A stretch of DNA of 64,000 nucleotides from the NCBI GenBank assembly GCA_963693055.1, contig OY843751.1, forward strand, positions 1,920,001 through 1,984,000, written 5' to 3'. Positions within the stretch are counted from its first letter, which is position 1, and every line of letters starts with the position of its first letter. The translations under genes and the position numbers were made by a program. Below the pieces are notes generated by a model. It did not search any database and had not been told where the DNA came from. It was given only the letters and a program-made list of their open reading frames with translations. Of this stretch, positions 26,679-46,296 are shown piece by piece. This DNA is from a bacterium. Its GTDB lineage: Bacteria > Zhuqueibacterota > Zhuqueibacteria > Residuimicrobiales > Krinioviventaceae.

Positions 26679-27824
26679 ATGACTTCAAGAGAACGATTGC
26701 TAACGGCGCTGAATCATCAGGAACCGGATCGGGTGCCTATTGACCTTGCCAGTGTGCAGGTAACTGGTATTTCTGCCATTGCCTATAACAGATTAAGAGA
26801 TTATTTGGGATTGGATGCTCGTGAACCTCAGATTTGCGATGCTATTCAGCAAATCTGTATCCCTCACGATGATGTATATGATAAATATGGTATAGATACA
26901 CGGGGCCTTTGGCCGTTAATGAACCATATGGATTTTACAGATACCGATGAAGGTGAATATTTTGCTCATATTGATGAATGGAGATTTGCCTATCGTCGTA
27001 AAAAAGAAGCGTTTTGGTACGATCTGTACAAATCACCCATGGAAAATGATACGCTTTCAGCAGAATTGATTGATAATTTTCCTTTCCCAAAAGGTGATGA
27101 AAAAAGACGCATCGAAGGACTCAAAGCTCAGGCACAAGCTTATCGTGATCAGGGATATGCAGTCGTTTTGAAAAGTATTTGTGCTGGTTTATTTGAAATG
27201 ATGATACGACTGCGGGGAATGCAGAATGCCATGATCGATCTTATGATGGACCCTGTTAACTCGGGGAAATTAATAGATCGTATTCTTGAGCATAAAATAG
27301 AGTTCTTTGAAATGGCCCTCGAAGAACTGGGTGATCTGGTAGATGTTGTTGCTGAAGGTGATGACTTTGGCACACAGGCCTCACAATTGATTTCGCTGGA
27401 TACCTGGAGGGATATTTTCAAACCCCGTCAGGCTGAATTGATACAAACCATGCATAAAAAAGCGCCCAATGCCAAAGTGTTTTTTCATTCCTGCGGCAAT
27501 ATTCGTCCGTTTTTGCCCGAGTTTATTGAAATGGGTATTGATATCATCAATCCCGTGCATATAACTGCTGACGGCATGGAACCCAAACAACTCAAAAAGG
27601 ATTTTGGTAAGGATGTTGTGTTTTGGGGCGGAGGTGTTGATACCCAGGGTACATTGCCCAATGGTACCCCGGATGAGGTTCGTGAACAAGTGAAACGTTT
27701 GATCGATATTTTTGCTGAAGGTGGTGGTTTTGTTTTTAATACAATCCATAATATTCAGGCAGACGTACCGCCACAAAATATAGTTGCCATGTATGAAACT
27801 GTTCTCGAATTCGGGAATAAATAA
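26679..27824 (+). CDS. Uroporphyrinogen decarboxylase (URO-D/MtaA-CmuA) family protein
   Basis: MTSRERLLTALNHQEPDRVP, GDDFG, FHSCG, GGGVDTQ and HNIQADVPPQN motifs. Confidence 0.88.
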   Translation: MTSRERLLTALNHQEPDRVPIDLASVQVTGISAIAYNRLRDYLGLDAREPQICDAIQQICIPHDDVYDKYGIDTRGLWPLMNHMDFTDTDEGEYFAHIDEWRFAYRRKKEAFWYDLYKSPMENDTLSAELIDNFPFPKGDEKRRIEGLKAQAQAYRDQGYAVVLKSICAGLFEMMIRLRGMQNAMIDLMMDPVNSGKLIDRILEHKIEFFEMALEELGDLVDVVAEGDDFGTQASQLISLDTWRDIFKPRQAELIQTMHKKAPNAKVFFHSCGNIRPFLPEFIEMGIDIINPVHITADGMEPKQLKKDFGKDVVFWGGGVDTQGTLPNGTPDEVREQVKRLIDIFAEGGGFVFNTIHNIQADVPPQNIVAMYETVLEFGNK

Positions 27825-30455: not shown

Positions 30456-32020
30456 TGCTAAAATATTTAATTAAATTTCTGCTGCCTGTTTTACTTTTAC
30501 TGCAATCTGTTTACGGGCAGCAGCAAATAAAGCCTACATCCTATACCGGTTATGTTCAACAGTGTGTTGAAAACCTGATGAAATATGGTACGGACCGGTA
30601 TGGAAAGATTCATGCGCCAATACTGGTCAGTATTCTGGATGTTGAAACACTGCAATGCCCGGAAAATCCATTGCCATTGGATGAGGCATGGCGGGTGACC
30701 CGGCGTGATCGTCGGAACCCTGCCGGCGCCAATCTATTACCGGATCAGCCCATGTTGAGGGCCATGTACTATTTAACAGACATAACCGGAAAACAGGATT
30801 ATGCGGATTTTGCCCGGTATTCGACGCGTTATTATATCCAAAACTTGTTGGATGATAAAAACATGTTCTGGTGGGGATGGCACCGCCATTATGATGTTTT
30901 TAAAGACATCATGACAGGCCATAGCGGCAATCATCATGAAATTCAGGCGGTACATTCCATTGACTGGCCTTATTTGTGGAATGCGGATTCTCTGGCGGTA
31001 ACCCGGGAGATTGAAGCAATCTGGAAATGGCATGTGATTGATAAACGAACCTGCGAAGTAAACCGTCATAACGATGGTAAACCGGGATGCGATTTTAGTA
31101 TGAGCGCAGGTGCGTATATTGAAGCCTTTACTTTTATGTATGTAAAAACTGGAAATGAGGAGTGGCTGGAGCGGGCCAAAGGACTGGCACAATACTATTG
31201 GGACCGCAGAAATCCCAAAAGTAACCTGTTCCCGGATCGGCCAAACGCCGGTACAGACCGGTTTGATGGCGATGCGTTTGTAACATCCATACCCTCTTTA
31301 TTTGGTCATTCATTGTTAAAAGCATACACCCTGACAGGTGAGACAATGTTTCGTGATTATGCTGTAGCGGTTTTAAAAGCCTATGCAAAGTATGGCTACG
31401 ATTCGAATAGCGGTAAATTCTGGGGTGCGCTCGATCTGGAAGGAAATCCTATACCCGGTCCACGTACATTGGGCGATTATGCGCAATACGAACCCCGTGG
31501 ACATTTGGATTTGTGGGAGCCCTATCTGTTGGGTTATCAGTACCCGGTTTATACCGCACAAATCTATGCGTACGCGTACCAGCTTACGAGTGAAAAAGTT
31601 TTTCTAACAACAGCCCAGCGATTTGAGGACTGGATCGCCAAAACACCCGTTGGAATGATTGAAACAGATAAAACCTGGTATACGGATTATACGAATACAT
31701 TTGGTAAAAAAGGTACATATGCGGATAAATATGGCCGAATTATTGCTTTTTATTTAAACATGTTCATGATCACCGGTAAAAACCAGTATCTTGAACAGGC
31801 ACAACAAGTAGCTGATACCGCTATTGAAAAACTCTATGTGCATGGGGTATTCAAAGGTCACCCGGCGAAACCCTATTACGAGTCTGTGGATGGTGTTGGG
31901 TATTTAATGTGTGCGTTACTGGAATTGGACCAGGTTTTAATCAACCCAAACCAGGCCCTGAAAAAGAAAAAAGTAATGATCGGCAATTCCGATAAATCTA
32001 TACCTGCCGATCTCTGGTAA
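30455..32020 (+). CDS. Secreted alpha/alpha-barrel protein, distantly PL2 pectate-lyase-like
   Basis: Signal peptide. DRYG, WWGWHRH and WKWHV..NRH resemble the PL2 motifs YWGGHR and WNAHV..RH (from recall). Start overlaps the upstream stop codon. Confidence 0.55.
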   Translation: MLKYLIKFLLPVLLLLQSVYGQQQIKPTSYTGYVQQCVENLMKYGTDRYGKIHAPILVSILDVETLQCPENPLPLDEAWRVTRRDRRNPAGANLLPDQPMLRAMYYLTDITGKQDYADFARYSTRYYIQNLLDDKNMFWWGWHRHYDVFKDIMTGHSGNHHEIQAVHSIDWPYLWNADSLAVTREIEAIWKWHVIDKRTCEVNRHNDGKPGCDFSMSAGAYIEAFTFMYVKTGNEEWLERAKGLAQYYWDRRNPKSNLFPDRPNAGTDRFDGDAFVTSIPSLFGHSLLKAYTLTGETMFRDYAVAVLKAYAKYGYDSNSGKFWGALDLEGNPIPGPRTLGDYAQYEPRGHLDLWEPYLLGYQYPVYTAQIYAYAYQLTSEKVFLTTAQRFEDWIAKTPVGMIETDKTWYTDYTNTFGKKGTYADKYGRIIAFYLNMFMITGKNQYLEQAQQVADTAIEKLYVHGVFKGHPAKPYYESVDGVGYLMCALLELDQVLINPNQALKKKKVMIGNSDKSIPADLW

Positions 32021-32027
32021 CGTATAG

Positions 32028-32099
32028 AAACGGATGATGTATGGTAGGACCTTTGAGTGGATACCTCCGGGGAGGTCAATCCGCTCGCATCATCCGTTT
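32028..32099. repeat. Long hairpin / REP-like element between convergent genes
   Basis: 12-bp IR aaacggatgatg / catcatccgttt enclosing the palindrome acctccggggaggt. Followed by a T-run. Confidence 0.65.
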
Positions 32100-32102
32100 T
32101 TT

Positions 32103-32193
32103 TTATGTTGTATGAGATTTTACAGCGTTCACAAAGGCCTGCATCTGTTCTGTCGTAACTCCCGGCGGCATTCCAACCGCACAGGAAAAAATG
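32103..32193 (-). pseudogene. Orphan 3' fragment of URO-D gene (direct repeat of 33301-33376)
   Basis: 32118-32193 matches 33301-33376 at 69/76 nt. On the minus strand it reads IFSCAVGMPPGVTTEQMQAFVNAVKSHTT-stop. Confidence 0.85.
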
Positions 32194-32340
32194 TAATATT
32201 TTTATGCTTGAATTTATAAATGTTCGTTAAGTGTTGTTGATTAGTTAATGAAATTGCTTTTGAATTAATAAATAATAGTTAGAAAATCTTTTGTTTCATT
32301 GTATGTTTTTTGTTCAATCAAAAGAAAAGGGGATTTTAAA

Positions 32341-33210
32341 ATGAAAAAAGTTTTATTGATTGGAAATGATATAAATAATGTTTCTAATACAACATCATGG
32401 GAGAATTTATTAAACAAAATTATAGAATTTAGTGGTAATGATATTGAAATTACACAGGATAAATCAAAACCTTTCCCATTGCTATACGAGGAAATATATT
32501 TGAGAGCAAAACAAAAATCAAACAACATGGATGAATTAAAATTTAAAGAACATATTGCAAATATTGTATCTAATATTGAACCTAATGTAATACATAATGA
32601 ATTACTTAAGCTTGATTGTCAAGATTTCATTACTACTAATTATGATTATGTCCTTCAAAAGTCTTTATTAAAAGGTAAATCAACAAAAAATATACAAAAT
32701 GTTGGTATAATTAAAGAATCAAAATATAGTGTTTTTAGACATAATGTATTGAATGATAAGAATTTTTGGCATATTCATGGTGAAATAAATGTCCCGAATA
32801 GCATTACTTTAGGTTTTGAGCATTATGGTGGTCAACTTCAACAATTTCGTAATTATACAGTAACTGGTACTTCTTATAAAAGTAAAGAAATTGAAACACT
32901 TTATAATCAATTAAAAAATAATTCATTAAAATATCATTCATGGATTGATTACTTTTTTAAAGATGAAATACATATTATTGGTTTAAGGCTTGGTTATGAA
33001 GAAAGTGATTTATGGTGGTTGTTAACTATTAGAGCGAGATATATGTATGAAAAATTTAATGTTGAAAATAGAATTTTTTATTACTGTCCTGAAAATTATA
33101 AAGATAACGGGAAGCATGAAATAATGGAAGCAACAAATATTGAACCTGTTTACCTTGCAGGAGAAGGTTTAGAATTTTATGAAAATTTAATACAAAGGAT
33201 TAATAATTAG
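32341..33210 (+). CDS. SIR2-like (SIR2_2) family protein, candidate anti-phage NADase
   Basis: LLIGNDIN, TTNYD, HIHG and IIGL motifs. Strongly AT-rich relative to neighbours. ATG 32341 follows an aagggg RBS. Confidence 0.78.
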   Translation: MKKVLLIGNDINNVSNTTSWENLLNKIIEFSGNDIEITQDKSKPFPLLYEEIYLRAKQKSNNMDELKFKEHIANIVSNIEPNVIHNELLKLDCQDFITTNYDYVLQKSLLKGKSTKNIQNVGIIKESKYSVFRHNVLNDKNFWHIHGEINVPNSITLGFEHYGGQLQQFRNYTVTGTSYKSKEIETLYNQLKNNSLKYHSWIDYFFKDEIHIIGLRLGYEESDLWWLLTIRARYMYEKFNVENRIFYYCPENYKDNGKHEIMEATNIEPVYLAGEGLEFYENLIQRINN

Positions 33211-33288
33211 ATAATTATTAATCCTTTGTTAATTCTATTAAACACTTAAATGCTATTTCCTATAATTATGAAATGAGTAATATTATTT

Positions 33289-34320
33289 TTAATTAAAAAC
33301 TTTTACAGCGTTCACAAATGCCTTCATTTGTTCTGTCGTAACTCCCGGCGGCATGCCACCTGCGCAGGAAAAAATGACCCTGGATTTGTCCTGAATTCCA
33401 TCCAATAGTTTTTTTGTTTCAGATTCAATGGTTTCCGGATCGGCAGATGCCAGTACATCCCGCGGCGGCAGGTTACCCAGCAGGGTTACTTTATTGTCAG
33501 TCAGTGTTTTAAGCTCTTCCAATGTCACATCTATTCCCATATTATAAAGATTGACGCCCATTTCCGGCAAAAAGGGAGCGGATACTTTGCACGGTGCGTC
33601 ATTGTGCAGGAATTTGACCGATACATCCTGATCGTACAGACGTTTGAAATAGGGAAGGCCAAATGATTTAAATTCGGGCTCACCCATAAACCCGATAATA
33701 TCATCCAATAACAAAATTCCGTCAATATCCGGAAAGGTTTCCCGTTGCAGATGGATCCATTTTTCAAGAAAATCGGTTATCTTTTGGACCAAGAGTTCTG
33801 CCTTGTCCGGCTGCATCATGAGCGTGGTAAGAAATTCTGTTGAACCCATCAAATAACTGGCAATGTTCAGAGGGCCTCTGGCTACCGCAAAACGGATTTT
33901 ATGTCCCGCATGCTCTATAGCCGGTTGTGCCAGTTTCAACCGGTTCAGCATAAAGGGAAGGAGTCCATCCGTTGCAGGATTAGGGACCTGAAGTTTGTCT
34001 ATGTCATCAGCAGATTGAATGACCTTGTGAGCGTGGGGAAATTCGTTTCCCGGGAAAACACATTTTGCCCCAAAAGCAGAGGGTTCGGTGCACATGCCAA
34101 ATTCCGACCAGAATCCCGGCAGGAACATAACATCAGGAAACTGCTGAATAACATGCAGATTTGCCTGCATCCAGAGAGTATCGTTACTGAAATAATCGAG
34201 AATAGAAATATCATACCAGTTTGGCAGCCAGGGACTGTCAATGATAAATCCTACCGGTAGTGGGTATGTTATATTGCCATGTATTGTTTGTAATAGTTCA
34301 TTCCATTGTTTATCGGTCAT
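33289..34320 (-). CDS. URO-D family TIM-barrel protein (HND variant)
   Basis: RGPLNIAS, LLDD, FLHND, LGNLPP and SCAGGMPPG motifs. Confidence 0.85.
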   Translation of the reverse strand: MTDKQWNELLQTIHGNITYPLPVGFIIDSPWLPNWYDISILDYFSNDTLWMQANLHVIQQFPDVMFLPGFWSEFGMCTEPSAFGAKCVFPGNEFPHAHKVIQSADDIDKLQVPNPATDGLLPFMLNRLKLAQPAIEHAGHKIRFAVARGPLNIASYLMGSTEFLTTLMMQPDKAELLVQKITDFLEKWIHLQRETFPDIDGILLLDDIIGFMGEPEFKSFGLPYFKRLYDQDVSVKFLHNDAPCKVSAPFLPEMGVNLYNMGIDVTLEELKTLTDNKVTLLGNLPPRDVLASADPETIESETKKLLDGIQDKSRVIFSCAGGMPPGVTTEQMKAFVNAVKVFN

Positions 34321-36744: not shown

Positions 36745-38175
36745 CAGGACACCCCCGAAAAATCACAAATCATATTACTGTAAGTAATAAAAAATAATGG
36801 AGATAGAAGCAAAAAAAGCTTGTAAAAATAAAAAAAGGTTGCCTCATTATAGTTGACAGACCATAATATAGGAGGCAACCCATGGACATCACAAAACGAG
36901 TCCAAGTAAAACTTAATCAAGTGACAGCGAAATATCAAGCAGAATTCAACCGACCGGACTATAAATTTATCAGAGACATGCATTATGGGATACTTTGCTC
37001 CGGGCATGTACATTTAAATAAAATCGCATCAACCCTAAAGGAAGAGACGAGCCTAAAAAAGACAACAGAACGAATGTCTAGCCACTTGGGCCGCCCAGGA
37101 TTTGACAGAGAATTAACCATTAGTCATCTGAAAATAAACAAAAGAAGGTTTTCGGATTCGAAATACTTGATAGCAGATATGAGTGATATAATCAAGCCTT
37201 ATGCGGAAAAGATGGAAGGGCTTGATCGTGTTTATGATGGTAGTACCAAAGAACTAGGGAATGGATACTGGCAACTGAATATCATTGGAGTTGATAAAAC
37301 CGGTACATCCATCATGCCGCTGGTGAGTACGCTTTGGGCGACGGATCAGGAAGAAGGCAAAGGTATTTCAGAGAACAAGAAAATCCTCGAATCCGTGGAC
37401 ACGATTCGAGAACATATTCATGGAGAACAGATAGTTGTTTATGATCGCGGAGGTGATCGTAGCAAACTGATGAACAAATGGATTAAGCAAAAACAACACT
37501 TTATAATACGGCAAACCGGGTACCGGGATATATTTGTTCAAGGAGTAAAGAAGAATTTAAAGAAATATGCCGAAAAAATCCGTCCCAGTACTGAAATTAC
37601 CGTGCAGAAAAAACGCCGGAACAGGCTGATAAAGCGATGTTTTCAATGCGGTGCCCGTAAGGTATATCTGCCAAAGCAGTATGGGGATGGCCCAATGAAC
37701 ACCGGATTATGGCTGATTTCAGTCACTGAACCTGGCAAAGGCAAAAGCTGGTTTTTAAGCTTTATACCGGCAGAGACTGAACGTGAGGCCATAGAGATTA
37801 CCATGGAAGGCTATGGTTACCGGTGGAAAATTGAAGAGGTACATCGTCAAATAAAAAATGATTATCATCTTGAAGACATTTGCCTTAAAAGGTATGTTGC
37901 GCTAAAAAATTTTAATGCCCTGTTTTGGAATGTCATGAGTTTTATCTATTGTCATTTGGATAATATTTGTTTACATATTTTAGATCAATCTCAAGCTCCG
38001 TTGGTGTATAGAAGGAAATTAAACGAGTTTATTGGGTTTGTTTATTATAAACTGGCAAAGGCATTAAGGATCATTTTACCCAATATAAAGCTCAGAAAAT
38101 TAAAGTGTAATAATCATGCCGGTGACAAAAATCAATTATTTTTGGCCCTCGAATAAAAAAATCGGGGGTACCCTG
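36745..38175 (+). mobile_element. IS4-family insertion sequence
   Basis: TIRs caggacacccccga / tcgggggtaccctg (12/14 match). Exact 11-bp target duplication cctatcattaa at 36734-36744 and 38176-38186. Confidence 0.92.
36882..38156 (+). CDS. IS4-family DDE transposase
   Basis: IADMSDI (D1), YDRGGD (D2) and YGYRWKIEEVHRQIK (YREK-type E) motifs. Confidence 0.93.
   Translation: MDITKRVQVKLNQVTAKYQAEFNRPDYKFIRDMHYGILCSGHVHLNKIASTLKEETSLKKTTERMSSHLGRPGFDRELTISHLKINKRRFSDSKYLIADMSDIIKPYAEKMEGLDRVYDGSTKELGNGYWQLNIIGVDKTGTSIMPLVSTLWATDQEEGKGISENKKILESVDTIREHIHGEQIVVYDRGGDRSKLMNKWIKQKQHFIIRQTGYRDIFVQGVKKNLKKYAEKIRPSTEITVQKKRRNRLIKRCFQCGARKVYLPKQYGDGPMNTGLWLISVTEPGKGKSWFLSFIPAETEREAIEITMEGYGYRWKIEEVHRQIKNDYHLEDICLKRYVALKNFNALFWNVMSFIYCHLDNICLHILDQSQAPLVYRRKLNEFIGFVYYKLAKALRIILPNIKLRKLKCNNHAGDKNQLFLALE

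Positions 38176-40558: not shown

Positions 40559-46296
<5,738 letters not shown>

Follow-up and report, generated by a model that had tools for sequence, protein, structure and literature searches.

Two diverged copies of a host gene's end enclose a lone AT-rich sirtuin (SIR2) gene, at a site that is empty in the sister species, the one congeneric genome available (G001). The foreign 1.1-kb segment may well have been gained after the split of the two species, through recombinase-free recombination that was anchored by homology and had a congener as its source of DNA. Positions are those of the window, the whole stretch of 64,000 nucleotides that was analyzed, unless prefixed with another sequence label.

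Anatomy of the islet and its host gene

Two direct repeats of 76 nt, at positions 32118-32193 and 33301-33376, are 91% identical, with 7 mismatches and a spacing of 1,183; the longest identical run inside them is 26 nt. They are the only two copies of this sequence, with no third, in the 6.5-Mb single-contig genome (BLAST E 1.3e-22). The sequence unique to the islet between them is 1,107 bp long, with 23% GC and one intact gene, a SIR2_2. An earlier note on this DNA had described a lone AT-rich SIR2-like gene between 76-bp repeats with 7 mismatches, in an islet free of integrase and transposase. Both descriptions were borne out: gene and repeats lie where they had been placed, the 1,107 bp hold one ORF only, and a strict listing of ORFs and repeats gave no integrase match or remnant in them. 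There are seven tyrosine recombinases in the genome; none lies within the window, the nearest being 274 kb away. A DDE transposase (PF01609) is located at 36882-38156, at a distance of 3.5 kb. The stretch that holds it is different in G001, and nothing seen connects it with the islet.

Read along the plus strand, the region begins with a long native hairpin with a T run (32027-32108, plus strand), the likely terminator for the pectate-lyase-like gene that lies upstream. The orphan gene end (32103-32193, minus strand) consists of the 76-nt repeat plus SHTT*; it is likely the displaced native end and carries a G to V change in the conserved GGMPP motif. Next come an AT-rich leader (32194-32340, plus strand, 20% GC) and the solo SIR2_2 gene for an immune-type sirtuin (32341-33210, plus strand, 289 aa, 24.5% GC). 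The sigma-70-like match at 32248-32276 in the leader is weak, as the region holds 20 such matches versus 10.7 in shuffled sequences. A perfect 18-bp inverted repeat lies over the SIR2 stop (33192-33229, unstranded) and is predicted to be a bidirectional terminator for the converging SIR2 and URO-D-superfamily genes. The latter gene, the host (33289-34320, minus strand), is intact, encodes 343 aa and ends in VFN*; its codons 316-340 are the working copy of the repeat (33301-33376, minus strand), likely the incoming allele.

The host had been called a URO-D gene. Membership of the URO-D superfamily stands, but the protein falls below the hemE and MtaA cut-offs, so that its identity as a uroporphyrinogen decarboxylase is not established. 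Amino-acid identity to the G001 protein is 98%. The working gene ends in ...AVKVFN*; the orphan, which is preceded by in-frame stops (minus strand), ends in ...AVKSHTT*. Compared by codon, the two copies show five synonymous and two non-synonymous (G>V, K>Q) differences. The first G of GGMPP, which is V in the orphan, is G in 109 of 109 aligned loci, including those of this genome and of G001. A second, distant URO-D-superfamily gene is found at 26679-27824, in the same sugar-utilization cluster. As a source of the repeat it was rejected; tblastn with the host gene did not pick it up.

The hairpin 3' to the orphan had been described as terminator-like. It is real (z -5.85), but its T run is on the plus strand, facing the converging upstream gene, and it is absent from the list produced by a terminator pattern scan. 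The first gene that it serves is probably the converging pectate-lyase-like one. A stretch of 150 nt (31958-32107) is identical in both species despite a genome-wide divergence of ~10%; the hairpin in this stretch is unusually long and branched (-41 kcal/mol) and has a single copy in the genome. No Rfam match was found within 31800-33600. The hairpin formed by the inverted repeat of the islet gave z values of -4.1 and -4.3, and its right arm repeats the final SIR2 codons in inverted form without a mismatch (18/18). A fold-back event, marked by this inverted copy, may have created the islet terminator; no matching hairpin arm was present in the listed flanks of the five closest named SIR2 relatives. 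The islet has a hairpin of its own where the two genes converge, as a settled chromosomal locus would, which favors homology-anchored gain.

Empty site and polarity of the two gene ends

G001 is ~89% identical to the genome studied here over 2.1 Mb aligned. It has an exact empty site, at which the flanks are joined via a single tail copy; the gene ends there in AVKSHSS* and is followed by the same hairpin. The gain of a 1,183-bp unit at the gene end, as proposed in the earlier note, is upheld by this allele. An empty allele had been predicted as well, although with the end KSHTT, and the end found is KSHSS*. The SIR2 family is absent from G001 and from the other 17 searched genomes of the bacterial family (0/18), and matches to it occur in 4 of the 125 genomes of the class, the source genome included.

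Among the three tails, orphan and G001 are identical at 72/76 positions, working copy and G001 at 70/76, and orphan and working copy at 69/76. In the three-way comparison, private changes number four in the working copy (three of them synonymous) and two in the orphan; of the remaining sites, one differs in all three sequences and one is shared. An in situ duplication would be expected to place ~80% of later changes in the unconstrained orphan, and 2 of 6 polarized changes were observed there (P 0.016-0.021); these polarization statistics are based on 6-8 mutations and one outgroup. Over the orphan plus its tail, 7 of 91 nt differ from G001, where ~7 differences are expected if the sequence was coding until recently and 19-21 if it had been neutral since the split. 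Thus, the sequence appears to have stayed coding until recently. These comparisons suggest a displaced native end in the orphan and, in the working end, another coding allele at approximately sister-species distance. A crossover inside the repeat, from which both copies would have emerged as chimeras, fits equally well. The proposal that both copies evolved as coding alleles is supported by the outgroup comparison, but the synonymous excess from which it had been drawn (5/7) is weak on its own (P≈0.07 under in situ duplication).

The VFN* end of the working gene may reflect a stop that arose by chance in AT-rich DNA rather than an evolved donor end; the probability of a stop within four codons in such DNA is 0.28. 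In the host gene body, the four-fold-site difference from G001 is 0.30, the 35th percentile of 1,043 genes, and this test gave no sign of the excess divergence expected of a long donor tract. Donor DNA as distant as a sister species would leave the divergence of the gene body unraised.

The sirtuin cargo and its relatives

Counted from the ATG at which its homologs start, the SIR2 ORF encodes 289 aa and matches PF13289 (E 8e-7). The score of 29.7 bits, against a cut-off of 24.5, together with the sirtuin fold places the protein in SIR2_2. The gene has a GC3 of 0.14, the second lowest among 3,945 genes, and its homologs number 208 proteins. The best folds for the structure model (pLDDT 89.8) are KomC, the sirtuin domain of DSR2, and ThsA, for which Foldseek (PDB 8zsf, 8ygc, 8bto) gave E values of 1e-9 to 5e-9 and TM scores of 0.56-0.65. 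The TTNY and HxHG motifs are invariant across 30 aligned homologs and, by motif correspondence, presumably hold the catalytic Asn and His, which would be N100 and H146 in the cargo. In DSR2, NADase activity requires N133 and H171 (PMC10981675). The immune SIR2_2 NADases KomC, DSR2 and ThsA, as described in PMC10981675 and PMC12700824, share the fold and both motifs with the cargo, but sequence identity is 14-19%.

In homology searches, the cargo gave only weak matches to ThsA (E 5e-6). A search for longer SIR2 forms found at least four distant proteins, of 24-26% identity, among the matches listed. Such sirtuins act with a SLOG or macro domain and a TIR partner in Thoeris, with a long C-terminal sensor in DSR2, and with KomA/B in Kongming. 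The cargo is a single domain of 289 aa that lacks a sensor domain and has no partner gene in the islet, and so belongs to none of these three systems. We predict, as slightly more likely than not, that it is a sensor-less NADase that would give defense of the abortive-infection type.

The closest named SIR2 relatives are from Bacteroidota, at 53-65% identity. In a quick tree with long branches, the cargo groups with Bacteroidota (SH-aLRT 98), apart from the homolog of its own order. One relative, 46% identical, is carried by an ICE, with traD on one side and RAQPRD on the other, and adjoins a PADLOC PDC-S28 candidate; this interval of ICEs has been described as a defense hotspot (PMC12629846). 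Another stands after a methylase, AbiEii and a PLD-SNF2 helicase. Both contexts speak for a defense role. At 45 of 67 SIR2-relative loci the same upstream neighbor, a 2OG-Fe(II) oxygenase, was found; these loci, nearly all from Chitinophaga and with host-like GC, are kin and not independent cases. The Chitinophaga gene occupies a fixed site, where its neighbors are the 2OG-Fe(II) oxygenase on one side and a META-domain gene on the other (L029-L084). A fixed locus with host-like GC amounts to core-gene behavior, which counts against a defense role and hints at a non-defense or domesticated role in Chitinophaga. A Vibrio relative (L352:5974-6992) is followed by a 48-88-nt sequence that is repeated after neighboring AT-rich genes. 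We take these repeats to resemble integron cassette ends.

Routes of arrival and comparison with known systems

For homology-anchored gain, the donor would be a congener in which a sirtuin gene already stood downstream of the same gene. The donor piece would have comprised the gene tail, a terminator and the converging SIR2 gene. On the gene side it would have been joined by homology, with resolution 76 nt before the native end, either at an illegitimate junction, as in homology-facilitated illegitimate recombination, or through one crossover with a small circle; the two are not separable. The host gene would thus have been kept whole, and the native end would have been stranded and begun to decay. 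The exact empty site in G001, private changes that are mostly synonymous, and polarized changes that contradict in situ duplication all argue for this route, as does the lack of an integrase in or near the islet and among 110 host-gene loci. The genome has comEC and dprA, a weak argument since 10 of 14 control genomes have both; most published cases of long target duplication are from naturally competent species (PMC2853133). On the other side, a donor-type locus, with the URO-D gene followed by SIR2 and no orphan, was found in no genome searched, and the donor step is thus one that we infer. The gene body lacks extra divergence, a decayed integrative element would leave exactly the same pattern, and the placement of the closest named relatives in Bacteroidota leaves an earlier capture step unexplained.

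When 2.41 of the 6.5 Mb of G001 were compared, 171 junctions and 40 clean indels of at least 300 bp were found. Flanking repeats accompany 6 of these 40, and an orphan coding tail is seen in the SIR2 islet only. One of the six is a classical 50-kb tRNA-Pro island (C1:2,842,291-2,892,789), which has a tyrosine integrase and a 47-bp repeat without mismatches and is absent from G001. A genome scan for duplicated gene tails, which the earlier note had advised for the flanks of AT-rich genes, gave three rows (4,950 ORFs, strict conditions), one of which is the islet. A second unit did emerge, but with cargo of normal GC. In this older unit, C1:3,705,824-3,706,874, an 83% copy of the final 90 nt of an MBL-fold gene follows an SDR gene of the same orientation. 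The unit is common to both species (L342 in G001); at 8 further loci of the MBL-fold gene it was not found. Its metabolic cargo fits a generic process, as homology-anchored gain would be. One row, an ORF at 43,497, was dropped by judgment as probably a spurious ORF over an intergenic repeat. The other two-copy repeats checked in G001 either had both copies shared or gave no clean empty site. The orphan-tail pattern is rare, recurrent and not tied to defense cargo. Elsewhere in the genome, regularly spaced short repeats with unique spacers, CRISPR-like by eye, lie beside a tyrosine recombinase gene at C1:2,553,450-2,554,141.

Other loci were searched for the same arrangement. The duplicated tail was present at 0 of 109 other host-gene loci (0/29 from the class, with flanks up to 1.5 kb, and 0/80 from metagenomes, with at least 1.2 kb downstream in 60 of the 80 and at least 5 kb in 29). 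Apart from G001, these loci encode proteins 54-72% identical to the host protein, and the genus is barely sampled. Four tail matches of 15-24 nt were judged to be chance. No match to the seven tyrosine recombinases of the genome was found among 110 host-gene loci. Gene-tail repeats flank none of the 67 SIR2-relative loci; three of these (L034, L068, L087) have some flanking repeat but, by coordinates, no gene-tail copy hugging the gene. Searches of viral contigs with one exact degenerate pattern of the tail, with the hairpin and with the SIR2 protein gave no match.

A possible, though less probable, origin is a site-specific integrative element of the e14/icdC type, now reduced to a CIME-like remnant in which all but SIR2 has been lost. 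The element would have brought the replacement 3' end, with the first 12 identical nt of the repeat as its core. A restored gene beside a displaced fragment with synonymous differences is an integrase signature in the cases described in PMC13626634 and PMC4383910, and the working copy is odd at both ends of the repeat, as expected from a crossover at the 5' edge. The relative that rides in an ICE is consistent with such an origin, as are the tyrosine recombinases and the classical tRNA-Pro island of this genome. It is at odds with the lack of duplicated tails at other loci, most of which have short flanks, with the lack of matches to the genome's integrases at host-gene loci, with the single-pattern search of viral contigs, which gave no att-like match, and with the lack of any integrase remnant in 1,107 bp; moreover, the orphan has hardly decayed, so that a clean reduction would have had little time. 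An in situ long target duplication, by illegitimate insertion or break repair, appears unlikely. Here the copies would once have been identical, the working copy would have diverged or been converted later, and VFN* would be a chance stop. One step and no special donor would suffice, the chance of such a stop is appreciable, the synonymous excess by itself is not significant, and a published three-way divergence is similar (368/393, 370/393 and 361/393; PMC2853133). The greater number of private changes in the working copy (P≈0.02) means, however, that a later conversion must be added.

The earlier note had favored either a minimal islet mobilized in trans or a cargo hotspot. A dedicated islet that cycles at the site, or such a hotspot, now seems very improbable, even though the H47 island excises and integrates without a recombinase of its own (PMC5426353) and excision would restore an intact host gene. 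No circle or deletion joint, the former having been named in that note as something to look for, occurs in the contigs of three runs of one sample, in which rare forms are dropped. No other cargo was found at the host-gene loci examined, of which one is from a congener, the unit and its ends occur in the genome only once, the 67 SIR2-relative loci have no comparable flanks, and the viral contigs gave nothing. Hardly any weight can be given to an artifact or a loss. Misassembly had been named earlier as a danger to the whole reading, but single contigs from the three runs, probably of the source sample, span the stretch whole with 0 differences, and no identical run in the repeat exceeds 26 nt. 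The remnant of a tandem paralog, the other such danger, is contradicted by the absence of any tandem paralog at 109 loci. Deletion of an ancestral islet in the sister species with an early crossover would likewise make the G001 allele nearer to the orphan, but the orphan is too little decayed for this (P≤0.002), and the SIR2 family occurs in none of the 18 other genomes of the bacterial family.

Insertion accompanied by a long target duplication is a known architecture, of which the sirtuin case is new; a full-text search of the open-licence literature found no paper that joins "long target duplication" and SIR2. Work by Nobusato in 2000 reportedly also concerned the insertion of RM genes in this manner. 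The RM-gene insertions described by Furuta, Abe and Kobayashi in 2010 (PMC2853133) share with the islet a defense-type cargo, no mobility gene, imperfect repeats, an empty site in a relative, and unique direct repeats of >30 bp that span a gene end; they include single-gene cases, mcrA and an orphan methylase. As in that screen, the insert is below 20 kb with no other mobile element (1,107 bp, one ORF), the repeat is above 30 bp and genome-unique (76 nt, two copies), and a relative has a single-copy empty site (G001); the cargo is SIR2_2 and not RM, so that the islet is of the same structural class but outside the RM set. The cargo of the islet is a sirtuin and not a nuclease, so that the role proposed for DNA cutting by the cargo does not apply, and the islet copies look like two alleles and not like one target that was duplicated.

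Prophage e14 at icd/icdC (PMC13626634) resembles the islet in its restored gene, displaced C-terminal fragment and synonymous differences. However, the e14 prophage has 15 kb and is excised when SOS is induced, whereas the islet is 1.1 kb with one gene and has no site-specific recombinase of its own. CIMEs, as described in PMC5704250, have lost integration and transfer genes and have direct repeats that include the target gene end, and the islet agrees on both points; no parent ICE/IME or integrase was found for the site (109 loci with short flanks, viral contigs, one congener), and the 76-nt repeats are only putative att sites. The microcin H47 genomic island is likewise recombinase-free and lies between long imperfect direct repeats, but it is 13 kb long, with excision and integration demonstrated (PMC5426353), whereas no mobility was seen for the islet in contigs. 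Homology-facilitated illegitimate recombination and the C-terminal displacement of T6SS/Rhs genes (PMC5361080, PMC2884548) share with the route proposed here a one-sided homology anchor and an added foreign gene, and in T6SS/Rhs the old 3' end is also left as an orphan. Those displacements form arrays, whereas the islet is a single event at a metabolic gene.

It is conceivable, though improbable, that recombination at short, diverged gene tails trades single defense genes between congeners in general and without a recombinase, with the solo SIR2 as a self-sensing anti-phage protein and the 1.2-kb tail-terminator-gene unit open to re-mobilization. The empty site and the polarized mutations make the islet a clean, dated case of the arrival of a gene without a mobility enzyme, with the host gene left whole. 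As the cargo is not a nuclease, insertions with long target duplication do not need DNA cutting by their own cargo. The 208 proteins of the cargo family are stand-alone immune-type sirtuins that are directly assayable.
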